Of a stretch of DNA of 64,000 nucleotides, positions 457 through 60,054 are shown piece after piece. The position numbers were made by a program, and so were the translations under genes. Each line of letters begins with the position of its first letter. Position 1 is the first letter of the stretch. The stretch comes from Candidatus Omnitrophota bacterium (GTDB taxonomy: Bacteria > Omnitrophota > Gorgyraeia > Aquiviventales > Aquiviventaceae), in the NCBI GenBank assembly GCA_016180575.1, contig JACPAY010000001.1, forward strand, positions 64,857 to 128,856. The letters are read 5' to 3'. The notes under the pieces were generated by a model. It saw only the letters and a list, made by a program, of their open reading frames with translations, made no database searches and was not told where the DNA came from.

Positions 457-1288
457 CGCTGGACACCCCAACGAGGCAGATCCCCGCATCACCGGCGGAG
501 GCGATCAGCGCCTCGCGCTCCAGGAGGATCGTGGTACCCGCCTCGACCGCCAGGCAGGAGACGCCGGCCTCCTTGAGCGTGGCGAGCGTGTCGGGGCCGA
601 TGACCGGCAGGTCGAAGCGCCGGTCCTGGCGGGGGGCGGCCGCCTTCACGACGACGAGCCCATCGCCTGCCAGCGCGTGCGCCCGCCGGATGGCGGCGTC
701 GGTGCCCTCCAGCGCCTCCACCGCCACCACCACGCGGTCTTTCACGACCACCGTCTGCCCGACGTCAAGCGCGGCGAGGGCGCGCGCGGCGCGCAACCCC
801 ACGGCGATGTCTTCCTGTTGGGCCGCCGTCGGCCCCGCGGAGGTCAAGGGACCTTCGGGACAGAGGGCGGCGCGGAGGAACGTGGAGGAATCGAGCAGGG
901 TGATGCCGGCGTGGGCCAGCCGCTGGCCGACCGCGCCCAGCAGCGCCCCGGCTGAGAAGTCGGGGGCCTGTCGCAGCACCTCGCGGAGGTCCGCGTCGAA
1001 GGCCGCGGGCTTGCCGAGGAGCACCGCCTTGGTCACCTTGCCGGCCATGATCGCCTCGCGCACGCCGTGCGCCTTGAGGCGCTCGAGGAGCCGCGCGAGC
1101 TGGCCGACCGGGAGCTCCTCATAGGCATCGACCTCCCCGGCGAGGGCGGGGTCCGCCCACCCCTGGATGCCGACGGCGATGACGCGCCGGCCCTGGCGCT
1201 TCGCCTCCCGGGCGACATGGAACGGAAATGACCCCGCCCCGGCAATCAGTCCAAGCACCCGTCCGGTATCTGATACCTTTTTAGACAT
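440..1288 (-). CDS. lpxI: UDP-2,3-diacylglucosamine pyrophosphatase LpxI (DUF1009)
   Basis: 282-aa ORF with an LGLIAGAGSFP N-terminus and an RRFDLPVIGPDT region typical of LpxI. It lies directly downstream of lpxA. ATG 1288 sits in the loop of repeat A1, so GTG at 1258 (MLGLIAG...) is an alternative start. Confidence 0.8.
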   Translation of the reverse strand: MSKKVSDTGRVLGLIAGAGSFPFHVAREAKRQGRRVIAVGIQGWADPALAGEVDAYEELPVGQLARLLERLKAHGVREAIMAGKVTKAVLLGKPAAFDADLREVLRQAPDFSAGALLGAVGQRLAHAGITLLDSSTFLRAALCPEGPLTSAGPTAAQQEDIAVGLRAARALAALDVGQTVVVKDRVVVAVEALEGTDAAIRRAHALAGDGLVVVKAAAPRQDRRFDLPVIGPDTLATLKEAGVSCLAVEAGTTILLEREALIASAGDAGICLVGVSSDDPHP

Positions 1289-3465: not shown

Positions 3466-4014
3466 TCAGGGGGCCCCTTTCGCGCGGCCGTTCAGCGCCG
3501 CGAGAACCTCGTCGGTGACATCGTAGGCGTCCTGGCCGTAGACCATGGCCTGCCCGTCCAGGATGAGCGAGAACCCGTTGGCCTTGGCGTAGTCCTGCAG
3601 CACCCGCTGGATCTCCTCCAGCAGCCCCTTGGCCACCCCGTCGCGCTCATGGCGCAGGTCCCGCGCCGTGTTGGTGCGGAAGCGCTGCAGCTCGTCCGCC
3701 CGCTCCTCGATCTCCCGGGCCTTGGACTCGCGGGCCTCCGCGCTCAGCAGCTCCAGGCTCTGGCGCATCTTCCGGAGCTCCTCCACGCGGCCCTTGAGCT
3801 CCGCCTCCTTCTGCTTGCCCTTCTTCTCCAGCGCGGCGTCGGAGGCCTGCGTCTTCGCATAGCCGTCGAACACCTTGGCCATGTTCACATAGCCGATCTT
3901 CAGCTCCTCCGCCCTCGCCGTGGGACAGGGGACAGGGGACAGGGGACACGCTGCGAGGATCATGAGGATGAGGATGACGCCGTGGGACCACCCGCGCAAG
4001 ACCGCCTGTCTCAT
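3466..4014 (-). CDS. skp: OmpH/Skp-like periplasmic chaperone
   Basis: 182 aa from ATG 4014. Hydrophobic signal peptide followed by a Lys/Glu/Arg-rich coiled coil. bamA-skp-lpx synteny supports the call. The track ORF 3466..4521 is over-extended. Confidence 0.75.
   Translation of the reverse strand: MRQAVLRGWSHGVILILMILAACPLSPVPCPTARAEELKIGYVNMAKVFDGYAKTQASDAALEKKGKQKEAELKGRVEELRKMRQSLELLSAEARESKAREIEERADELQRFRTNTARDLRHERDGVAKGLLEEIQRVLQDYAKANGFSLILDGQAMVYGQDAYDVTDEVLAALNGRAKGAP
3922..3948. repeat. tandem heptamer GGGGACA x about 4 inside the skp signal-peptide coding region
   Basis: gGGACA GGGGACA GGGGACA GGGGACA on the + strand. It encodes ..CPLSPVPCP.. on the minus strand. Confidence 0.9.
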
Positions 4015-4033
4015 GTCTCCTGTCTCCTGTCTC
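4006..4033. repeat. Family C heptamer array (CTGTCTC x4) at the bamA-skp junction
   Basis: CTGTCTC ATGTCTC CTGTCTC CTGTCTC, which is (GAGACAG)n in gene sense. It contains the bamA stop, GGAG SD-like motifs and the skp ATG. Confidence 0.9.
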
Positions 4034-6344
4034 AGAAACTCCGGCTGATGTTGAAGTGCACCTGCAGCTCGCGTTCCTCGCCGGGATCCAGGTCGCTGAC
4101 GGGCACCCCCAGATCGAGCCGCAGCGGCCCGATGGGCGTGTTCACGCGCACCCCCGCCCCCGCGCCCGCCTTGAACGACTCGCCGAACTCCTTGACGCGC
4201 CGCCAGACGTTGCCGACGTCCAGGAAGACCGATCCCCGGAGGATCGGCCGGCCGCGCTCGTCTTTCAGCAGCGTCACGACCTCCTCCAGCGTCCCCACGA
4301 GCAGCGCCTCGCCGCCGATGGGGTCGTTGGACGCCGGGTCGCGCGGTCCCACGCGCCGCTCCTCGAAGCCCCGGATGGTGCCGGAGCCGCCGCCGAAGAA
4401 CCGCTCGAAGATGGGGACCTCCGACGTGCCCGAATAGGCGTCGACGATCCCGGCGCGGAGGCGGGACTCGAACACCAGGCGGTCCCAGTGGGGGAGGTAG
4501 TGGCTCCCCCCCGCCTGCCACCGGTAGAAGTCCTTGTCGGCCCCGAAGAGCCCGCCCGCCAGATCGGCCGAGCTGAACAGGAACAGGCCGCGGGTCGGGT
4601 CAAAACGGTTGTCCCGATGGTCCCAGGAGATCCCGAGGCCCGCGACGCTGATGGTGTTGCGCCCCTGCTCGGCCTTCAGGTCAGCCGAGGCCTCGGTCAC
4701 CACGTCGGAGATCTCGGTGCGGTAGAGCTGGTAGCTGAGGCTCCCCAGCAGGCCGTCGATGAACTCCCGGCCAAGCCGCAGCCCCGCCCCGCGCTGCTCC
4801 TCCTCGAACGCGAGGCCCAGGTTGCGGCTGCGCAACCGGGTGCGGTTGTACGCGTCGATGCCGAGCGACACCGGGTGGCCGAAGATCCACGGCTCGGTGA
4901 ACGACACGTCGAAGAACCGCCGGACGGTGCCGACCTCCACCCGGAAGCGGAGGTCCTGCCCCGCGCCCGTGAATGTCGGGAAGTTCCGCCAGTCGAAGTT
5001 GCGCTGCTCGAGCTCCACGAGGCCGACGAGGCGATCCACCGAGGAGAACCCGCCGCCGAAGCTGAAGCTGCCGGTCTTGGCCTCCTTGACCTTGACGACC
5101 AGATCCTCGCGGTCGGGCGTCTCGGTCGGCTCCGTCTCCACGCTGACCTCTTCGAAGTACCCCAGGTTGTAGAGCCGGTCGATGGACTTGCGGATCGCAG
5201 CACCGTCGAACCGCTCGCCGGGATAGGCCCGGAGCTCCCGGCGCACGACGACGTCCTTGGTCCGCAGGTTGCCCCGGACCTCGACGCGGTTGATGGACAC
5301 GAGCTCATTCTCGGCGATGCGGTAGGTCAGGTTCACGCGCTTCGTCGCGTCGTCCAGCTGCGGCTCCGGGACGACCTCCGCGTGGATGTAGCCCCGGTCG
5401 CCGTAGTATTGCTTGATGCCCCGCAGGTCCTCCTGCAGCGCCTCCTGGCTGTACACCGCCCCCGGCTTGAGCGTGATGGCCTGCCGGATCTCGCGCTCCG
5501 GAAAGAGCACGGTGCCGGTCAGCGCCACCTGGCCGACCCGATGCTGCAGCCCCTCCGTGATCTTCAGATGGACATAGAGCCCGCGCCCGGCGGCGTCCCG
5601 GTAGACCTCCTGGGTGGCGGCGACGTCCTGGTAGCCGTGCTTCCGGTAGAAGGCCCGCACCCGCTCGAGGTCCTCCTCGAGCACCTGCTCGTTGTAGACC
5701 CCGGAGCGGAACCAGCGCCGGCGCTTCGTCTTGAGCAGCTTCCGGATCCGTCGGTCCGGGAAGGCCTGGTTGCCCTCCACCAGGACGCCGGCGATCCGCA
5801 TGCGGGTCCCCTCCTCGACCAGCAGATAGATGGTCGCCGTGTTGGCTACCTCATCGAGCTGGACGCGCGAGGCGATCTCGCTCTGCGAAAACCCCTTGCG
5901 CGCGTACTCCGCCTTCAGCTGATCGATCCCCTCCTTGACCCTCCGGGGGTCGTACAGCTCGCCCGGACCGACGCCGAACAGCTCAAGGAGCTTGGGCTTG
6001 CCCAGCGCCCGGTTGCCCTCCACCTCGACGGCTGACACCGTCGGCTTCTCGGTGACGACGAACACGAGGCGCAGCCCCTCGGGCGTCTGCTCGACATCGG
6101 CCCGGACGTCGGTGAAGTAGCCGAGCGCGAAGAGGCGCCGGATGTCTTCGCTGACGATCGCGTTCTGATAGGGCGAGCCCGGCTTCGTCCGGACGCGCGC
6201 CAGGACGGTTTCCTTGGCGACCGTCTTCGCGCCGCGGAGCTCCACCGCGACGACCGTTTCGCCCTCCTGGGCGAAGCTGGGGGACGCCGCGAGGCCCATG
6301 CCGCAGAGGAGCAGGGCCAGGCAGCTGCCAGCGGAGCGGCTCAT
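4032..6344 (-). CDS. bamA: outer membrane protein assembly factor BamA
   Basis: 770 aa. Signal peptide (..ASPSFAQEG), POTRA-like N-terminal repeats and a C-terminal beta-barrel ending ..HFNISRSF. Confidence 0.93.
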   Translation of the reverse strand: MSRSAGSCLALLLCGMGLAASPSFAQEGETVVAVELRGAKTVAKETVLARVRTKPGSPYQNAIVSEDIRRLFALGYFTDVRADVEQTPEGLRLVFVVTEKPTVSAVEVEGNRALGKPKLLELFGVGPGELYDPRRVKEGIDQLKAEYARKGFSQSEIASRVQLDEVANTATIYLLVEEGTRMRIAGVLVEGNQAFPDRRIRKLLKTKRRRWFRSGVYNEQVLEEDLERVRAFYRKHGYQDVAATQEVYRDAAGRGLYVHLKITEGLQHRVGQVALTGTVLFPEREIRQAITLKPGAVYSQEALQEDLRGIKQYYGDRGYIHAEVVPEPQLDDATKRVNLTYRIAENELVSINRVEVRGNLRTKDVVVRRELRAYPGERFDGAAIRKSIDRLYNLGYFEEVSVETEPTETPDREDLVVKVKEAKTGSFSFGGGFSSVDRLVGLVELEQRNFDWRNFPTFTGAGQDLRFRVEVGTVRRFFDVSFTEPWIFGHPVSLGIDAYNRTRLRSRNLGLAFEEEQRGAGLRLGREFIDGLLGSLSYQLYRTEISDVVTEASADLKAEQGRNTISVAGLGISWDHRDNRFDPTRGLFLFSSADLAGGLFGADKDFYRWQAGGSHYLPHWDRLVFESRLRAGIVDAYSGTSEVPIFERFFGGGSGTIRGFEERRVGPRDPASNDPIGGEALLVGTLEEVVTLLKDERGRPILRGSVFLDVGNVWRRVKEFGESFKAGAGAGVRVNTPIGPLRLDLGVPVSDLDPGEERELQVHFNISRSF

Positions 6345-10623: not shown

Positions 10624-11598
10624 TTAACTCGGCATCCCGTCGAACAACACGCTGATGGAGAGCTCGTAGTGGATCCGGCGGATCGCCTCGCTCAGGAGGG
10701 GCGCCACCGACAGGACCGTGATTTTGTCCTGCCGTTTCGAGCGGGCAAGCGGGACCGTGTTCGTCACGATGAGCTCCTTCAGGCCGGAGCCCGCGATGCG
10801 CTGCCGGGCCGGCCCGGAGAGGATGGGGTGCGTCACGCAGGCGTAGACCGCCGTGGCCCCGGCCCGGTCCAGGGCATTGGCCGCCTCGATGAGCGAGCTG
10901 CCCGTCGCGATCAGGTCATCAACGAGGAGCACGGTCTTGCCCTTCACGTCGCCCAGGATGTGCATGACCTCCGTGGCCTCCGGCGTGTTGCGCCGCTTGT
11001 CCACGACCGCCAGGCCCGCCCGCAGCCGCTTCGCGTAGGCGCGCGCCAGCTTGATCCCGCCGACGTCCGGCGACACGACGACGATCGGGCGGAGCCGCTT
11101 GCGCCGGATGTACTGCTCGAAGACCGTGATGGCATAGAGGTGATCGAGCGGGATGTCGAAGAAGCCCTGGATCTGGCCCGCGTGCAGGTCCATCGTCAGG
11201 ACCCGGTCCGCGCCGGCCGTCGTGATGAGGTTGGCCACGAGCTTGGCCGTGATGGGCACCCGGGGTTGGTCCTTGCGGTCCTGCCGCGCGTAGCCGTAGT
11301 AGGGGACGACGGCGGTGACGCGGCGGGCCGAGGCGCGCCGCACCGCGTCGAGCATGATGAGCAGCTCCATGAGATTATCATTGGTCGGCGGGCAGGTCGG
11401 CTGGACGATGAACACGTCCTTGCCGCGAACGTTCTCGTTGATCTTGACGCGGATCTCCCCCTCGCTGAACCGCCCGACGAACGAATCCGCGAGCGGCACC
11501 CTCAGCTCCCGGCAGATCGCCTTCGCGAGCTCCGGATTGGCGTTGCCGCTCAGGATGGCCAGCTCCGCGGAGAGCCGGTAGCGCTTCGGGGGGGCCAT
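10624..11598 (-). CDS. prs: ribose-phosphate pyrophosphokinase
   Basis: 324 aa with VVPYYGYARQDRK, DLHAGQIQGFF and the PRPP loop LVDDLIATGSS. Confidence 0.95.
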   Translation of the reverse strand: MAPPKRYRLSAELAILSGNANPELAKAICRELRVPLADSFVGRFSEGEIRVKINENVRGKDVFIVQPTCPPTNDNLMELLIMLDAVRRASARRVTAVVPYYGYARQDRKDQPRVPITAKLVANLITTAGADRVLTMDLHAGQIQGFFDIPLDHLYAITVFEQYIRRKRLRPIVVVSPDVGGIKLARAYAKRLRAGLAVVDKRRNTPEATEVMHILGDVKGKTVLLVDDLIATGSSLIEAANALDRAGATAVYACVTHPILSGPARQRIAGSGLKELIVTNTVPLARSKRQDKITVLSVAPLLSEAIRRIHYELSISVLFDGMPS

Positions 11599-13196: not shown

Positions 13197-13267
13197 CTGG
13201 GGAGCCAGGACTCGAACCTGGACGTGGAGCTTCAAAGGCTCCTGTGCTGCCGTTACACTACTCCCCA
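13197..13267 (-). tRNA. tRNA-Gln (anticodon UUG)
   Basis: Hand-folded cloverleaf: UGGGGAG/CUCCCCA acceptor stem (U1-A72, as in Gln tRNAs), GUGU/GCAC D stem, GGAGC-CUUUGAA-GCUCC anticodon arm and CCAGG-UUCGAGU-CCUGG T arm. The discriminator is G and CCA is not encoded. Ends are good to about 1-2 nt. Confidence 0.9.
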
Positions 13268-14161
13268 TCGCACAGACACCTTCGAAGCCGGCTCACCGCG
13301 CCAGGTCTGCACCACCTCGACGCGCCAGGGATGCCGGCGCAGCGACCCGGCGACGGCCTCCGCCTGGGCCGCGTCGCGGCAGAGGCCGAAGACCGCGGGC
13401 CCGCTGCCGGAGACAGAAACCCCCTCACAGCCAAGACGGCTCAGAGAAGACTGGATGGTCGCAATGACAGGGCAACGCCGGATCGCTATAGGTTGAAGAT
13501 CGTTCCGTAATCCCTTAGCGAGCTCGCCGAGCGAGCCGTTGCGTAAGGCGTGCGTCACCATGCTAATCGAGGAGGGGGGGGCTGTCAAGCTGATTTCCAG
13601 CGCCGCCTCCTGATCCCAGGCCGCGAAGATATCCTTCGTGGTCAGGCGATCCGGCGGCACCGCCAGGACATGGGCCAGCGGCCGCACGCCCGCCAGGGGC
13701 TCGCATCGCTCCCCCCGGCCCCGCCCGATCGCAAACGGGGCCTCGCCAAGAAAGAAGGCGACGTCGGACCCCACGCCCGCGCCAAGCTCGGCGAGCCTGC
13801 CGGGGGGCCATCGGAGATCCCAGAGCGCGTTGAGGCCGAGGAGCGCTGCGGCCGCGTCGGAGGAGCCGCCCCCCAGTCCGGCTGCGATGGGGATGCGTTT
13901 GGCAAGATGGATGCGGGCCCCGCGCGTCAGGCCGCTGGCCTGCTGCAGCGCCCTCGCCGCGCGCAGGACGAGGTTGTCCTCGCCGCAGGAAAGCGCCGGC
14001 TCCGTGCAGGTGAGCGCCAGCTCCCCGTGCGGCTCGAAGGCCAGCTCATCACACAGGTCGATCCGCTCGAAGAGCGTTTCGATCTCGTGGTAGCCGTCAG
14101 CTCGTCGCCCGACCACGCGGAGCGACAGGTTCAGTTTGGCAGGTGCGGACAGGCGTATCAT
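13253..14161 (-). CDS. ispE: 4-diphosphocytidyl-2-C-methyl-D-erythritol kinase
   Basis: 302 aa with PAKLNL.L.V and the GHMP kinase loop PIAAGLGGGSSDAAA. The last 15 nt overlap the 5' end of tRNA-Gln. Confidence 0.9.
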   Translation of the reverse strand: MIRLSAPAKLNLSLRVVGRRADGYHEIETLFERIDLCDELAFEPHGELALTCTEPALSCGEDNLVLRAARALQQASGLTRGARIHLAKRIPIAAGLGGGSSDAAAALLGLNALWDLRWPPGRLAELGAGVGSDVAFFLGEAPFAIGRGRGERCEPLAGVRPLAHVLAVPPDRLTTKDIFAAWDQEAALEISLTAPPSSISMVTHALRNGSLGELAKGLRNDLQPIAIRRCPVIATIQSSLSRLGCEGVSVSGSGPAVFGLCRDAAQAEAVAGSLRRHPWRVEVVQTWRGEPASKVSVRWGVV

Positions 14162-14165
14162 TTAG

Positions 14166-14211
14166 AAGTACCGGGTACTTTTCCCGCTTTGCGAAGTACC
14201 CGGTACTTTTT
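14166..14211. repeat. Family B hairpin repeat, copy B1
   Basis: AAGTACCGGGTACTTTTCCCGCTTTGCGAAGTACCCGGTACTTTTT. It fills the whole transketolase-ispE intergenic gap. Confidence 0.9.
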
Positions 14212-20132: not shown

Positions 20133-20479
20133 AGCGCGGCCGACCAGGTGTGGTCGGAGAAGTCGAACGGCTTGGTGACGTAGCCGGCCGCCCCGAGGAA
20201 GTACGCCTCGCGGCGCAGCTCATCCCGGTCGAGGGCCGTCACCATGATGATCCGCGCCGTCGGGTGGAGCGCCCTGACGCGCTTGAGGAGCTCAAGCCCG
20301 GAGAGGCCGGGCAACAGGATGTCGAGCAGGATGACGTCCGGCGAGGTACCGGCTTGGAGCCGCTCCAGCGCCTCCTCCGCGCTGAAGGCCGACGCGACCG
20401 CGAAGCCCTTGGCGCTGAAGAACTGCTCGAGGCAGTCGCAGATATCGCGCTCGTCCTCCACGATGAGCATCTGCCGCAT
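20129..20479 (-). CDS. single-domain response regulator (CheY-like receiver)
   Basis: 116 aa: MLIVEDE..., LLDILLPGLSGLELL, IIMVTA and GYVTKPF. Confidence 0.85.
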   Translation of the reverse strand: MRQMLIVEDERDICDCLEQFFSAKGFAVASAFSAEEALERLQAGTSPDVILLDILLPGLSGLELLKRVRALHPTARIIMVTALDRDELRREAYFLGAAGYVTKPFDFSDHTWSAAL

Positions 20480-20492
20480 CCGCTACTCCTCC

Positions 20493-20531
20493 CCGGTATC
20501 AGATACCAAAGCGAGTTTGGTATCTGATACC
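20493..20531. repeat. Family A palindromic pair, copy A2
   Basis: CCGGTATCAGATACCAAA-gcgag-TTTGGTATCTGATACC. 16-bp stem and 5-nt loop, immediately upstream of the SD of the CheY-like gene. Confidence 0.9.
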
Positions 20532-20695
20532 AAAATGGGCTGCTGAAGCCTTCGCTTCGGCAGCCCACCCTTCCGGTGCGACGCACCGGACGCGCGGCTT
20601 TGCGTCCCCCGCTCACGCGGGGTTTGCCTTTCTCGGCGTCCGCGTTGTCTGGTTATAGTCTGCCTGATGCCGGGCGGGATTGGCAAGGGGCGGGG

Positions 20696-21157
20696 CTACT
20701 TTGCCTTGAGGGCGAGGAGCTCCTTGAGCTCCCGCATGAACTGCTCGACGTCCTTGAACTCCCGGTAGACCGACGCGAACCGCACGTAGGCGACGGGGTC
20801 GAGCGCGTGGAGCTTGCGCATCACGCGCTCGCCGATCTCGCGCGACGGCACCTCCCGCTCGAACTGCTGGGAGAGCTCCCGCTCCAGGTCGTCCACCAGC
20901 CGCTCCAGGTCGTCCATGCTCACCGGGCGCTTCTCGCACGCCTTGACGAGCCCGGCCAGCAGCTTGTGCCGGTCGAACGGCTCGCGGCGGCCGTCCTTCT
21001 TGATGACCATGAGCGGCTGCTCCTCCACGTGCTCGTAGGTCGTGAACCGCTTGCCGCACTTCAGGCACTCGCGCCGCCGGCGGACGGAGGCGCCGTCGCC
21101 GCTGCCGCGCGAGTCCACGACCTTGTCCTCCTGGTGGCCGCAGAAGGGGCACTTCAT
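20696..21157 (-). CDS. nrdR: transcriptional repressor NrdR
   Basis: 153 aa: MKCPFCGH...VVDSR......[15 protein letters not shown] zinc ribbon plus an ATP-cone. Confidence 0.93.
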
Positions 21158-22407
21158 GGCGCCCGCAGCTCCGGATAGAGCGGGAACCGGTCCGCCAGCG
21201 CCGCGACCTTGCGCGCCACGTCGGACGGGGCGGCCGGGTCGCCGCGGCGCGTGAGCGTTTCGTCGATGAGCTCGGCGACGGTGCGCATCTCCGCTTCCCG
21301 CATCCCCCGGGTGGTGAGCGCTGGGCTGCCGAGGCGGATTCCACTGGCCTTGCCGGGGGGGAGCGGGTCGAAGGGGATGGCGTTCTTGTTGACGGTGATG
21401 CGGGCCTGCCCGAGGAGCTCCTGCGCTTCCTTCCCGGTGAGCCCCTTCGGCGTCAGGTCCACGAGCAGGAGGTGGTTATCGGTGCCGCCGGAGACGATGC
21501 GGTAGCCGCGCTCGGCAAGCGCCGCCGCCAGCGCCCGCGCGTTGGCCACGACCTGCCGCTGGTAGGCCCGGAACGCGGGCGCCGCCGCTTCCTTGAAGCA
21601 GACCGCCTTCGCGGCGATGACGTGCATGAGCGGCCCGCCCTGGTTGCCGGGGAAGTTCGCCGAGTCGATCGCTTTCGCGTGGGTGCTCCGGCAGAGGATG
21701 AACCCGCCGCGCGGCCCGCGCAGCGTCTTGTGCGTCGTGGAAGTCACAAACTCGGCGTGGGGAACCGGATTGGGGTAGACGCCGGCGGCCACGAGCCCCG
21801 CGAAGTGGGCCATGTCGACGAGCAGGAGCGCCCCGACCGCGTCGGCGATCTTGCGGAAGCGCGGGAAGTCCAGCGTCCGCGGGTGGGCGGAGTAGCCCGC
21901 GAGGATGAGCTTCGGCTTGTGCTCCCGGGCCAGCGCCTCCACCGCATCGTAGTCGATCTGCTCGGTGTCCCGGCTGACGCCGTACGGCACGATGGTGAAG
22001 AACCGGCCGGAGAAGTTCTTCGGGTGGCCGTGCGAGAGATGGCCGCCGTGCGCCAGGCTCATCGCGAGGATGGTGTCGCCCGGCTGGAGCGTGGCGTAGA
22101 AGACGGTGATGTTGGCCTGGGTGCCGGAGTGCGGCTGGACGTTTGCGTGCTCCGCGCCGAAGAGTGATTTGACCCGCTCGATGGCCAGGCGCTCCGCCAC
22201 GTCGACGAACTCGCAGCCGCCGTACCACCGCGCGCCGGGGTAGCCCTCGGCGTACTTGTTGGTCAGGATGGAGCCTTGCGCCTCCAGGACGGCCAGGCTC
22301 GTGAAGTTCTCCGACGCGATCAGCTCCAGGTGCTCGCGCTGGCGCTGCAGCTCGCGCTGGATCGCGTCCGCGATCTCAGGATCCACTGCCCGCAGATGTG
22401 ACATCAT
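21154..22407 (-). CDS. glyA: serine hydroxymethyltransferase
   Basis: 417 aa with [21 protein letters not shown] and [14 protein letters not shown]. Confidence 0.96.
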
Positions 22408-22964
22408 GCACCACCTTTCAAAGTACCGGGTACTTTTCCCGCTTTGGGAAGTACGCGGTACTTTTTCTCGAGGGCGGCGATCTGCTTCACGCGGCGCTCA
22501 TGCCGCCCGCCCGACTCGAAGGGGGTCGCGAGCCACACCTCCGTGATGCGCCTGGCCCGCGCCTCGCTCAGCTTCTCCGCCCCCAGCACGAGGATGTTCG
22601 CGTCGTTGTGGCTGCGGCTGCGCTCCGCATCGAAGGGATCATGGCAGACCGCCGCGCGGATGCCCGGCACCTTGTTCGCCGCGATGGCGATCCCGATCCC
22701 GGACTTGCACAGCAGGATGCCCCGGTCGAACGCCCCCTGCGCCACCGCCGCGGCGACCCGGCCGCCGATCGCCGGATAGTCGCACGGCGCCGCGGAATGG
22801 GTGCCCAGGTCCGCCACCTCCAGCCCCCTCGCCCTCAGCAGCGCCACCAGCTTCGCCTTGAGCTGGAAGCCGCCGTGGTCCGCGCCGACCGCGACCCGAA
22901 CAGGTCCGGTATCAGATACCTTCGAGTGTCTGGATATCTTCTTTTGGTATCTGATACCGGTCAT
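22404..22964 (-). CDS. rpiB: ribose-5-phosphate isomerase B with repeat-encoded N- and C-terminal extensions
   Basis: 186 aa. The core is [13 protein letters not shown]...[20 protein letters not shown]...[13 protein letters not shown]. The only in-frame start is ATG 22964 (ATGA overlap), so repeat A3 is translated as [21 protein letters not shown]. The 3' end reads through repeat B2. Confidence 0.9.
22420..22466. repeat. Family B hairpin repeat, copy B2 (inside the rpiB 3' coding end)
   Basis: AAAGTACCGGGTACTTTTCCCGCTTTGGGAAGTACGCGGTACTTTTT. It is read through as ..[20 protein letters not shown]. Confidence 0.9.
22906..22960. repeat. Family A palindromic pair, copy A3 (translated as the rpiB N-terminus)
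   Basis: CCGGTATCAGATACC (22906-22920), a 25-nt spacer, then GGTATCTGATACCGG (22946-22960). Confidence 0.9.
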
Positions 22965-23437
22965 TGGACGCCGAGCGACTTCGCCACGCGCTCGACCGCC
23001 TCGCGGATCTCCGCAAAGCAGACCTCGTACACCTCGAGCGGCTTGCCGATGGGGTCCGGGATGCCCGCGGGGCCCGCCACCTCGCCCGGCCCGCGGCCGA
23101 AGGGTTTCAAGAGGTGCACCTTCCCGGCGGCGGCCGGCTCGCGCCGGATGACCTCCTCGGCCTGAAACGGCTCCATGACGAACACGAGGTCCGCCGCCCG
23201 GATCATGTCGGGGGTGAGGACCCTCGCCCGGTGGCCCGAGCAATCCACGCCGGCCTCCAGCAGCACGCGCTGCGTCTCCCGGGTCGCGCCCATCCCATCG
23301 ATGGCGAAGACGCCCGCGGATTCGACCTGGACCGCCTCCCTGCCGGCTCGCTGGAGCCGCTGCGTCAGCAGCCCTTCCGCCATGACGCTGCGGCAGCTGT
23401 TGCCGGTGCAGACAAAGAGAATCCGCTTCACATTCAT
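22961..23437 (-). CDS. low-molecular-weight protein phosphatase (YwlE-like; Tyr/Arg phosphatase family)
   Basis: 158 aa from ATG 23437. Contains RILFVCTGNSCRS (the CX5R P-loop) and DPIG near the C-terminus. It occupies the ywlE position in tsaC-ywlE-rpiB-glyA synteny. Confidence 0.85.
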   Translation of the reverse strand: MNVKRILFVCTGNSCRSVMAEGLLTQRLQRAGREAVQVESAGVFAIDGMGATRETQRVLLEAGVDCSGHRARVLTPDMIRAADLVFVMEPFQAEEVIRREPAAAGKVHLLKPFGRGPGEVAGPAGIPDPIGKPLEVYEVCFAEIREAVERVAKSLGVQ

Positions 23438-23442
23438 CAGCT

Positions 23443-23491
23443 GAGACAGGAGACAAGAGACGGGAGACAGGTGGGGGCTGTCTCCTGTCTC
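23443..23491. repeat. Family C heptamer palindrome at the tsaC/ywlE-like junction
   Basis: GAGACAG GAGACAA GAGACGG GAGACAG gtggggg CTGTCTC CTGTCTC. The tsaC stop lies in the last unit. Confidence 0.9.
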
Positions 23492-24113
23492 ATGTTGTTC
23501 CGATGATTGCCATGATGGCGTCTTTTGGGATCGCCCCTGCCCGGCGGATCTCGACGCGCCCGTCGCGCACCTCCACGACGGTCGATTCGCGCCCCAGGCG
23601 GGTCGGCCCGCCGTCGAGGATGCAGTCGATCGAGCCGTCCAGGGCGGCGAGCACCTCGCTCGCATCCGTCGGCGGCGGCGAGCCCGACCGGTTGGCGCTG
23701 GGGGCCACGACGGGGACCCCGCACGCCTGGAGAAACACCCGCGCGATGGGGTGGTCCGGCAGCCGGAAGCCGACGGTCTTGCCGTCCGCTCCCGGCATCA
23801 CGATGGTCAGGGGGCCTGGCCAGAACCGTTTCATGAGCGTCGCGGCCAGCGGCGGCACCGAGGCCACGAAGGGGCCCACCTGATCGGGCGCATGGATGTG
23901 CAGCGAATACGGTTTGTCGGGCGGCCGCCCCTTGACCCGGTCCAGCCGCTCGATGGCCGCGGGATTGGCGGCATCGGCCCCGAGGCCGTAGACCGTCTCG
24001 GTCGGGAACGCCACCAGCCCGCCGCCGCGCAGGATCTTCGCGGCCTCCGCGATCAGCGCCGGATCCGGCGCATCACCCGCCACCCCGAAGATCCGCGGCG
24101 TGCTAGAAGTCAT
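23490..24113 (-). CDS. tsaC: L-threonylcarbamoyladenylate synthase (TsaC/YrdC/Sua5 family)
   Basis: 207 aa from ATG 24113 with VAFPTETVYGLGADA, KGRP..KP and SANRSG. The 266-aa track ORF is over-extended. Confidence 0.9.
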   Translation of the reverse strand: MTSSTPRIFGVAGDAPDPALIAEAAKILRGGGLVAFPTETVYGLGADAANPAAIERLDRVKGRPPDKPYSLHIHAPDQVGPFVASVPPLAATLMKRFWPGPLTIVMPGADGKTVGFRLPDHPIARVFLQACGVPVVAPSANRSGSPPPTDASEVLAALDGSIDCILDGGPTRLGRESTVVEVRDGRVEIRRAGAIPKDAIMAIIGTT

Positions 24114-24310
24114 CCCAACACCTCTCGGGGCGGGTCCTGCCGCCTCCGGCACCCCGCCGTCCGTCCTCGTCCCGCCGATGGCGGGACTGCGGCCGGCGGC
24201 AGGGGCCCCCCTCGCCGGGGGCGGCCCCCCTCTGGCTCGCTGACGCTCGCCATCTCCCCCGTCTTGCGGGGGAGTCACCTCCAGCGTCACCCGCCAGAGG
24301 GGTGTTGGGA
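24113..24310 (-). promoter_or_regulatory. structured tsaC 5' leader with SD/AUG-sequestering long-range helix
   Basis: In the RNA sense, UCCCAACACCCCUCU (24310-24296) can pair with AGAGGUGUUGGGA (24125-24113). The second strand contains the SD GAGAGG and the A of the AUG. The helix encloses hairpins CUCCCCCG-caaga-CGGGGGAG and the E2 element. Confidence 0.4.
24132..24205. repeat. Family E long imperfect hairpin, copy E2
   Basis: GGGTCCTGCCGC (24132-43) and CCGTCCTCGTCCCGCCGATGGCGGGACTGCGG (24161-92) are exact reverse complements of 60034-60045 and 59987-60018. Confidence 0.8.
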
Positions 24311-34920: not shown

Positions 34921-34961
34921 CCGGTATCAGATACCAATCGGAAAATGGTATCTGATACCGG
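34921..34961. repeat. Family A palindromic pair, copy A4
   Basis: CCGGTATCAGATACC-aatcggaaaat-GGTATCTGATACCGG in the purB 5' leader, abutting the SD GGGAGG. Confidence 0.9.
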
Positions 34962-37642: not shown

Positions 37643-37650
37643 CAAAAAAG

Positions 37651-37700
37651 AAAAAGGTACCGGGTACTTTTCCCGCTTTGGGAAGTACCCGGTACTTTTT
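37651..37700. terminator. Family B hairpin repeat, copy B3, acting as a bidirectional intrinsic terminator
   Basis: AAAAAGGTACCGGGTACTTTTCCCGCTTTGGGAAGTACCCGGTACTTTTT lies between the convergent desaturase (stop 37642) and the oxidase IV-like gene (stop 37702). The stem of about 18 bp is flanked by an A-run on one side and a T-run on the other. Confidence 0.75.
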
Positions 37701-51426: not shown

Positions 51427-51491
51427 CCGGTATCAGATACCAACCCCCGATTGGTATCAGATACCGACTTCTACTTGGTATCTGATACCGG
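51427..51491. repeat. Family A, three-unit copy A5
   Basis: Units at 51427-51441 (centre A), 51453-51465 (centre A) and 51477-51491 (centre T), between the PNP gene and mtnA. Confidence 0.9.
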
Positions 51492-59949: not shown

Positions 59950-60054
59950 GCATGTGCCGGGTGACGCGGAGCGAATCCCACCCCGCCCGCAGTCCCGCCA
60001 TCGGCGGGACGAGGACGGGCGTGGGATCGCGTAGCGGCAGGACCCGGCACATGC
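59950..60054. repeat. Family E long imperfect hairpin, copy E1
   Basis: 13-bp closing stem GCATGTGCCGGGT/ACCCGGCACATGC and an apical hairpin GTCCCGCC-atc-GGCGGGAC. It shares 32-nt and 12-nt identical blocks with E2, in inverted orientation. Confidence 0.8.

Follow-up and report, generated by a model that had tools for sequence, protein, structure and literature searches.

In a 64,000-nt stretch of DNA from a Candidatus Omnitrophota bacterium (assembly GCA_016180575.1, contig JACPAY010000001.1, positions 64,857 to 128,856; "the window", whose own coordinates are used throughout), the gene for ribose 5-phosphate isomerase B (rpiB) probably begins at an ATG that lies upstream of a palindromic repeat doublet, A3, so that the repeat would be read as part of the enzyme. 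The argument combines the absence of any other usable start, an orthologous locus that lacks the repeat and uses the same ATG, and relatives that carry the repeat with no start codon downstream of it. At its 3' end the gene also reads through a member of a second repeat family, B2.

The start codon of rpiB

22404-22964, minus: rpiB coding sequence as it has to be read, an open reading frame (ORF) of 186 aa plus stop
22961-22964, minus: ATGA, the overlap (seen in the sequence) of the rpiB ATG with the TGA (22963-22961) of the upstream phosphatase gene
22906-22960, minus: repeat A3, a 55-nt inverted doublet (CCGGTATCAGATACC, 25-nt spacer, GGTATCTGATACCGG) running from rpiB codon 2 (third base) to codon 20 (second base)
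22946-22958: A3 unit next to the ATG, read as G-I-R-Y; exact match with CC/GG flanks
22921-22945, minus: A3 spacer, read as ..QKKISRHSK..; varies among orthologues
22908-22920: A3 unit next to the enzyme core, read as V-S-D-T; exact match with CC/GG flanks
22899-22901, minus: GTT codon (V22) at the canonical RpiB start position, by alignment to PDB 3he8; not a start codon
22479-22895, minus: conserved RpiB catalytic core, residues 24-162 (Pfam; predicted local distance difference test, pLDDT, >90)

The sole usable start of rpiB is the ATG at 22964-22962 (minus strand). Codons 1-32 read ATG ACC GGT ATC AGA TAC CAA AAG AAG ATA TCC AGA CAC TCG AAG GTA TCT GAT ACC GGA CCT GTT CGG GTC GCG GTC GGC GCG GAC CAC GGC GGC. 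Beyond codon 1 the first 30 contain no ATG, GTG, TTG or CTG, and the only near-cognate codons among them, ATC (codon 4) and ATA (codon 10), both fall within A3. Two claims of an earlier, sequence-only reading of this DNA – that none of these four codons stands in frame between A3 and the VAVGADHGG motif, and that the first usable start is ATG 22964, overlapping the upstream stop as ATGA – are thus borne out. No Shine-Dalgarno (SD) sequence precedes either ATG 22964 or codon 22; with GTT at the canonical position and no SD sequence, A3 is best assigned to the coding sequence. A protein of identical sequence (P0001, 186 aa), from a Candidatus Omnitrophica metagenome-assembled genome (MAG), is held at NCBI as 'ribose 5-phosphate isomerase B'. 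The sequence-only reading had also called A3 'obligatorily translated': comparative DNA, presented below, supports translation, whereas the adverb is a deduction from sequence.

Comparison with orthologous loci

Orthologous DNA was gathered one protein at a time. At the phosphatase-rpiB junction, four loci compare with the window as follows.

L001 (GCA_016196345.1); 90% protein and 91% core nt identity; no element, ATGA being followed by ATGACCGGAACTCGGGTC (MTGTRVAVG); no alternative start
L002; 88% core nt identity; same element, then AACG TTA CGG; no alternative start
L035; 81.5% core nt identity; same element, then GTG CGC CGC; GTG possible as a start
L036; 76% core nt identity; same units, unrelated 22-nt spacer, then CCGT GTC CGC, frame kept; no alternative start

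The combination of ATGA, element and open frame is kept in four further relatives, three of them seen as DNA (L002, L035, L036) and one as protein only (P0002). In L036 the spacer is unrelated to that of the window and 3 nt shorter, yet the frame is kept. Among these four, a GTG follows the element in L035 only; P0002 has Thr at that place. The canonical start position is occupied by GTG in L035, L060, L061, L062 and L063, by TTA in L002 and by GTC in L036, and has no corresponding codon in L001. L060, L061 and L063 are without an A element, and L062 (GCA_016198905.1) shows ATGA, a degenerate A element (12/15 and 12/13 matches), the SD sequence GGAGGTG and then GTG CGG CGC ATC.

The ATGA overlap is also seen in L001, L002, L035, L036, L062, L063, L064 and L065. 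The phosphatase stop has the context NNA-TGA in nine of 12 relatives, with Q, A, T, P, T, T, A, L or A as the last residue, and at 69% GC this genome seldom has A in the third codon position: that ATGA is kept despite both the varying residue and the rare base suggests that the ATG itself is under selection. The 30 nt of the two units are identical in the window, L002, L035 and L036, where the third-codon-position identity of the adjacent core is down to 0.52-0.82; the spacer is altered or replaced where the units stay identical.

An N-terminus of VSDT type ([VIL]SD[TI]) is present in 16 of 120 RpiB homologues, and five proteins (P0002, P0013, P0038, P0066, P0101) lack a Met, Val or Leu where the canonical start would be. 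In all 16 homologues with an A-type peptide the second A unit is read in the VSDT frame, and in none in the other open frame (YLIP). Judged from these sequences, the predicted N-terminal read-through is recurrent across the clade and no one-off.

In a neighbour-joining tree of the 133-aa core, L001 is nested inside the element-bearing clade, which suggests that its empty site arose by later precise loss between two CCGG repeats; the tree is weakly resolved. Whichever the polarity, the ATG is common to filled and empty alleles. A scan of JGI metagenomes for rpiB relatives gave two close loci among the matches listed, neither with an A element.

A separate observation concerns the N-terminus M-[ST]-[RK]-K-[KQN]-[VIL]-S-D-[TI], which recurs in P0013, P0018, P0022, P0038, P0044, P0070, P0101 and P0110 and at lpxI in the window (1256-1285). 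Here an ATG in the inter-unit spacer shares its frame with the VSDT reading of unit 2. A portable start codon in the hairpin loop was considered on account of this recurrence (M-[ST]-R-K-K-V-S-D-T) and of the spacer ATG at lpxI, L064 and L065; it was set aside because most spacers have no ATG.

The enzyme and its tails

Residues 24-162 match positions 1-138 of the 138-position Pfam profile LacAB_rpiB (PF02502) with 184 bits against a cut-off of 24.7 (E 1.7e-54), and the protein aligns to the solved RpiBs 3he8, 1nn4 and 2vvr with E down to 1e-43. The catalytic N-terminal G-x-D-H-x-G loop and the Cys of the C-K/G-S/T-G-I-G motif are present; G27, D29, H30, G31, G32, C86 and others are invariant in 97 homologues. 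In the alignment to PDB 3he8 (Clostridium thermocellum RpiB, 149 aa) Lys2 corresponds to R23 and, by extension, Met1 to V22, and the alignment ends at Y169. This leaves overhangs of 21 N-terminal and 17 C-terminal residues, close to the roughly 20 and 18 aa that had been predicted from the sequence.

An AlphaFold2 model based on the 97 homologues has a mean pLDDT of 86.6, with the core above 90. Residues 1-22 are modelled as coil (pLDDT 48-62), and the last helix ends at residue 170, the tail beyond it having a pLDDT of about 67-69. PDB 3ph3 is a solved chain of the same enzyme in which some 19 extra N-terminal residues precede the aligned region, and such a tail is therefore compatible with the RpiB fold. 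Both tails are modelled as coil without structure and are plausibly tolerated and disordered. They are best seen as tolerated by-products of junction-dwelling repeats, not as adaptive domains.

Gene neighborhood and a possible route to the long form

22961-23437, minus: low-molecular-weight (LMW) protein-tyrosine/arginine-phosphatase-like gene upstream of rpiB, 158 aa from MNVKR (orthologues with PF01451, LMWPc)
21154-22407, minus: glyA, serine hydroxymethyltransferase, 3' of rpiB (orthologues with PF00464, SHMT)
22402-22407, minus: glyA ATGATG, overlapped by the rpiB TGA (22406-22404), as seen in the sequence

The gene order is sua5, LMW-phosphatase, rpiB, glyA, nrdR, with purE and purD also present farther upstream, and the synteny around rpiB is common to relatives. 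A scan of 20400-23700 revealed no promoter-like and no minus-strand terminator-like site between the genes; the five genes from sua5 to nrdR apparently form a tightly packed, co-transcribed string.

The A element probably entered the coding sequence through decay of the canonical start, not by insertion into coding sequence. An intergenic origin is indicated by L062, where a degenerate copy is followed by an SD sequence and GTG, the layout found at the other A sites of the window. On this evidence, an A element would at first have occupied the short phosphatase-rpiB spacer; the ATGA restart codon would by chance have been in frame with rpiB and open across the element; and decay of the SD sequence and of GTG (to GTT, GTC or TTA) would have fixed the long form of RpiB.

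As for expression, ATGA and TGATG overlaps are known from gene pairs with termination-reinitiation coupling (Huber et al. 2019, PMC6728339; review PMC12548453, which sets out RNA-unfolding and scanning models). Both rpiB junctions resemble such pairs in their 4-nt ATGA overlap, and rpiB has no SD sequence; the difference is the very stable hairpin right after the rpiB restart codon, which is unusual for them. As RNA, A3 forms a 15-bp stem of -24.8 kcal/mol that begins 1 nt past the rpiB ATG. Most likely, ribosomes that end the phosphatase at the UGA of AUGA re-initiate at the rpiB AUG. A terminating ribosome would cover the first 12 or so nt of the 5' arm of A3, and the restart would thus meet an opened stem. 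To a free 30S subunit the AUG would be presented with no SD sequence and with a stem of about -25 kcal/mol 1 nt away, making rpiB translation dependent on phosphatase translation. Ribosomes would then read A3 in frame, giving a 21-residue N-terminal tail that is probably disordered. We infer both the coupling and the translation itself from the sequence. A library study, as summarised in the review (PMC12548453), found coupling to be less efficient when structure follows closely on the upstream stop; expression of rpiB could accordingly be low.

Points against translation of A3, and alternative explanations

Several points weigh against translation of A3. A 15-bp stem 1 nt past the start codon should hinder initiation. 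L035 has an in-frame GTG after the element, so that at least one relative may have only an optional tail. A partial bias also enters the sample of open-frame orthologues, since these were collected as called proteins and a called protein presupposes an open frame. The window is the consensus of a single MAG, in which a base error from GTG to GTT is possible, and the case for translation is made by sequence and comparison.

If such an error, or strain variation, concealed a true GTG at codon 22, RpiB could start at the canonical position and the palindrome pair would serve, like the other four A sites, mainly as a 5' leader or intercistronic hairpin. Only one base separates GTT from the GTG of the five loci listed above, and lpxI has the same layout (GATACCGG, 4 nt, then GTG). 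Independent assemblies, however, also have no start there (TTA in L002, GTC in L036, no codon in L001, Thr in P0002), no SD sequence precedes codon 22, and the in-frame ATG would still yield the long form even with a GTG, all of which renders this explanation improbable. It is also very unlikely that initiation takes place at the GTT or another non-AUG codon near the core, possibly positioned by the hairpin, to give a mature protein without the repeat peptide. The GTT is placed exactly where Met1 of the solved RpiBs aligns, and the end of the A3 hairpin is 6 nt upstream of it; but GTT is two positions off ATG and is not an accepted start codon in translation table 11, an SD sequence is missing here as well, ATGA is conserved, and the empty-site L001, with no such codon, must use the ATG.

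The strong stem abutting the start codon, together with the reported cost of structure for coupling and the loss of the SD sequence and GTG, might instead mark rpiB as a poorly expressed, decaying gene whose function another isomerase elsewhere in the genome has taken over. We give this little credence: the core is intact with all family-invariant residues, the structural model is confident, and the frame is kept in five lineages (76-88% core nt identity to the window) with no frameshift or stop. Translation of A3 would also be avoided by translational bypass, as in phage T4 gene 60 or mitochondrial 'byp' elements, with take-off at ACC-GGT, landing at ACC-GGA and 51 nt skipped. Direct repeats of ACCGG do flank a stable 51-nt hairpin, and the product would resemble the empty-site MTGTRVAVG. 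Yet the element is open and in frame, with no stop or frameshift to force a bypass, the take-off and landing glycine codons differ (GGT vs GGA), and a nascent-peptide signal of the gene 60 type is impossible after three codons; bypass is hardly credible. Start at ATG 22964 with translation through A3 is the reading that we prefer.

Family A in the window

The family A unit is a perfect 13-nt palindrome, GGTATCWGATACC, or 17 nt with its inner flanks. Eleven exact copies are present at 5 window sites against 0.24 expected from shuffles, and none of 100 shuffles reached 11. Units form inverted pairs or, once, a triplet, are usually 24 nt apart, and have CC/GG outside and AA/TT inside; the spacers differ from site to site. 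As RNA, A and B elements give stems of 15-17 bp with energies around -24 to -33 kcal/mol (in-context z about -4 to -6). All five A sites lie 4-13 nt upstream of a gene start. Besides A3 these are, by repeat match:

1263-1310: A1 doublet, 4 nt upstream of the GTG start of lpxI (minus strand)
20493-20533: A2 doublet, 13 nt upstream of a response-regulator ATG, abutting the SD sequence GGAGGAG
34921-34961: A4 doublet, 10 nt upstream of the purB ATG, abutting the SD sequence GGGAGG
51427-51491: A5 triplet (units within 51429-51489) at the junction of a purine/methylthioadenosine (MTA) phosphorylase gene and mtnA, 6 nt before the mtnA ATG

A2 and A4 are clearly intergenic, whereas A3, B2 and part of A5 are within ORFs as these must be read. 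The VSDTG peptide had also been placed at two other gene ends. At the N-terminus of lpxI it can be read but is not obligatory, given the canonical GTG 4 nt after the repeat. At the C-terminus of the phosphorylase it was misread: this ORF (PF01048) has no stop before A5 and ends within the first A5 spacer as ..AKLPVSDTK* (51471-51491). The phosphorylase is thus a second enzyme with a short repeat-encoded C-terminal tail.

Miniature inverted-repeat transposable elements are marked by terminal inverted repeats together with a target-site duplication. Terminal inverted repeats are present here, and the CCGG on both sides of A3 may be either a duplication or the element's own ends. At A2, a comparison of filled, half-filled and empty sites showed no visible target-site duplication: the riboswitch-response-regulator junction has two A units in the window, one in L001 and none in L060, with the riboswitch kept in all three. 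The riboswitch itself is a cyclic di-GMP-I (c-di-GMP-I) aptamer (RF01051, 58.4 bits, E 7.7e-9) at 20556-20638, minus strand, between nrdR and the CheY-like response-regulator gene. The A2 hairpin lies between this aptamer and the SD sequence GGAGGAG, where the expression platform should be.

Region 22350-23050, which includes A3 and B2, had no match in Rfam 15 at E up to 1. A promoter within the A unit was rejected: TTGGTA and TATCWG misfit sigma-70 spacing, and the scan of 20400-23700 had found no promoter-like site. So was a transcription-factor operator, as the centre-to-centre spacings of A units (24, 31 and 38 bp) are not helically phased. In L065, moreover, the units are GGTATCAGATATC and GATATCTGATACC, the second being the reverse complement of the first and neither perfectly self-symmetric; inter-unit complementarity is kept and self-palindromy lost. 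This pattern, a single case, favours a hairpin or inverted-repeat constraint.

Family B and the 3' end of rpiB

Matches to the family B unit, AGTACCSGGTACT, number seven in the window (at most 2 mismatches) against 0.30 expected, and six of them form three pairs. The B spacer, unlike the A spacers, is conserved.

14161-14211: B1 doublet (repeat match), filling a gene junction between the upstream stop, at its 5' edge, and the downstream ATG, 6 nt beyond it
22416-22466, minus: B2, a 51-nt AGTACCSGGTACT doublet (units at 22422 and 22450; repeat family search), 17 codons in frame in rpiB
37650-37700: B3 doublet (repeat match) between convergent genes, with A-run and T-run flanks

The sequence-only reading had rpiB continuing through B2 to end on the glyA start. 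It does so: the first in-frame stop is the TGA overlapping the glyA ATGATG, so that B2 would be read as RpiB residues. Placed between the last conserved RpiB helix and the glyA ribosome-binding site, B2 would add about 17 residues. Its hairpin has -24.2 kcal/mol, and an SD-like AAAGGTGGTG lies between B2 and the glyA ATG. The number of B units at this junction varies among close relatives.

L001: 0 units; rpiB reads ..AAIERRLLKKVRR*
L002: 0 units; a different, non-repeat tail
L061: 1 unit
Window: 2 units
L060: 3 units, in three successive frames (KYRVL / KVPGT / KSTRYF)

Whatever the number, rpiB extends to a stop at the glyA start, and the C-terminal tail past ..IE(R/K) is variable family-wide. 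Elsewhere, B3 with its A-run and long T-run (..GGTACCTTTTTCTTTTTTGTT) resembles a bidirectional intrinsic terminator; B1 and B2 are without a T-run.

Distribution of the A unit

The exact paired A unit was sought in 185,579 species genomes; the source genome is not among these species representatives. Of the 23 stretches found, real family members were confined to three MAGs, the others being single chance matches.

'uncultured Planctomycetales' ERP125453_co1_43: 11 loci
Omnitrophota NC_groundwater_1350: 4 loci
Omnitrophica WOR_2 RIFCSPHIGHO2_02_FULL_67_20: 1 locus

The exact unit thus has a narrow range. About 11 of the 16 elements in these MAGs lie 4-36 nt upstream of an ORF start, e.g. of rpsP and pyrR, by a simple count. 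At pyrR, two MAGs have an A doublet 18-21 nt upstream of the start (L055 4742-4782, L059 1470-1517), with unrelated spacers.

Unit sequence is uniform within a genome and different between species. In L064 the unit is GATATCWGATATC at all 6 copies in 12 kb (GGTATC to GATATC), and at its phosphatase-rpiB junction the phosphatase stop and the rpiB ATG both lie within the element's spacer. In the same locus (11410-11527) a c-di-GMP riboswitch match spans 118 nt against an 80-nt model and has a GATATCWGATATC doublet inside (units 11465 and 11490); the element appears to have inserted into the aptamer.

Relation to known repeats

Repetitive extragenic palindromic (REP) sequences form doublets, REPINs, that fold into hairpins and are mobilised by RAYT transposases; they are almost always extragenic, with 14 of 1067 16-mers overlapping genes in SBW25 (Bertels & Rainey 2011, PMC3116915). 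The elements described here share with them an excess of short palindromic units, the arrangement as inverted doublets whose ends are invariant and whose spacer is looser, a hairpin predicted in single-stranded DNA or mRNA, the occurrence of singlets, doublets and triplets, species-specific sequence, and no clear target-site duplication. They differ in unit (13-17 nt and perfectly palindromic, against about 20-60 nt with an imperfect palindromic core), in standing directly 5' of start codons in the window and not randomly in extragenic space, and in probably being read, here, as protein. The gene for a cognate RAYT, a Y1 transposase of IS200/IS605 type, usually has the repeats on its flanks; no transposase was found among the genes flanking the elements (in the 64-kb window and the short related loci).

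In-frame palindromic repeats tolerated by the fold of housekeeping proteins are known as Rickettsia palindromic elements (RPEs; Ogata et al. 2000, reviewed in PMC10969869). The likeness to A3 and B2 is confined to the in-frame outcome: a repeat in frame within a housekeeping gene, tolerated by the fold, adds a repeat-encoded peptide. RPEs, however, are about 100-150 bp and reside in internal surface loops of many proteins, as against 37-65 nt at gene termini here; there is no sequence relationship, Omnitrophota are unrelated to Rickettsia, and A3 was seemingly captured by an upstream shift of the start codon, not inserted in coding sequence. Mycobacterial interspersed repetitive units (MIRUs), reportedly described by Supply et al. 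in 1997, are short repeats in polycistronic operons whose frames overlap flanking stops and starts, suggesting translational coupling across the repeat. They too have repeat-borne frames that overlap neighbouring stop and start codons, and differ in being 46-101 bp direct tandem repeats with separate mini-ORFs, not hairpins fused to an enzyme. A and B, then, resemble miniature REPIN-type junction elements, and repeat-derived peptide extensions are a phenomenon already known in other bacteria.

It is possible, though we hold it unlikely, that the A palindromes are more than selfish passengers and form a lineage-specific cis signal, recognised in trans by a protein factor or an RNase (RNase III, for instance), that marks ribosome-binding regions and junctions and gates coupling or mRNA processing. 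Such a role would be consistent with the start-proximal sites (5/5 in the window at 4-13 nt and about 11/16 in related MAGs within 36 nt); with occupation of the same junctions across species (phosphatase-rpiB, nrdR/riboswitch-response regulator, pyrR); with units that are 100% conserved where synonymous sites are near saturation; and with the concerted change of units between species (6 copies in L064) along with the one VSDT frame in 16 homologues. Were it true, the N-terminal peptide of RpiB would be a conserved consequence of the A signal.

If our reading of rpiB holds, a little-studied candidate phylum offers an example of miniature junction palindromes that have been built into an essential protein, and such palindromes can be captured with no insertion into a gene, the start or stop codon having moved to the far side of the repeat. 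For annotation this means that extended termini of high-GC Omnitrophota genes can be real and yet repeat-derived. The filled, half-filled and empty alleles of close relatives also offer a natural test case for the question of whether a hairpin after an ATGA restart codon enforces coupling.

Other features of the window

Directly upstream of the phosphatase ATG is a third repeat, composed of tandem TGTCTCC-type heptamers (CCACCTGTCTCCCGTCTCTTGTCTCCTGTCTCAG, minus strand, 23441-23474), with an 88% complementary copy at 4002-4035. A dispersed 39-nt pair, CGTCCGTCCTCGTCCCGCCGATGGCGGGACTGCGGCCGG, occurs at 24158-24196 and 59983-60021, 36 kb apart and 95% complementary. A tRNA gene is located at 13197-13267 on the minus strand (Rfam RF00005, 62.8 bits).

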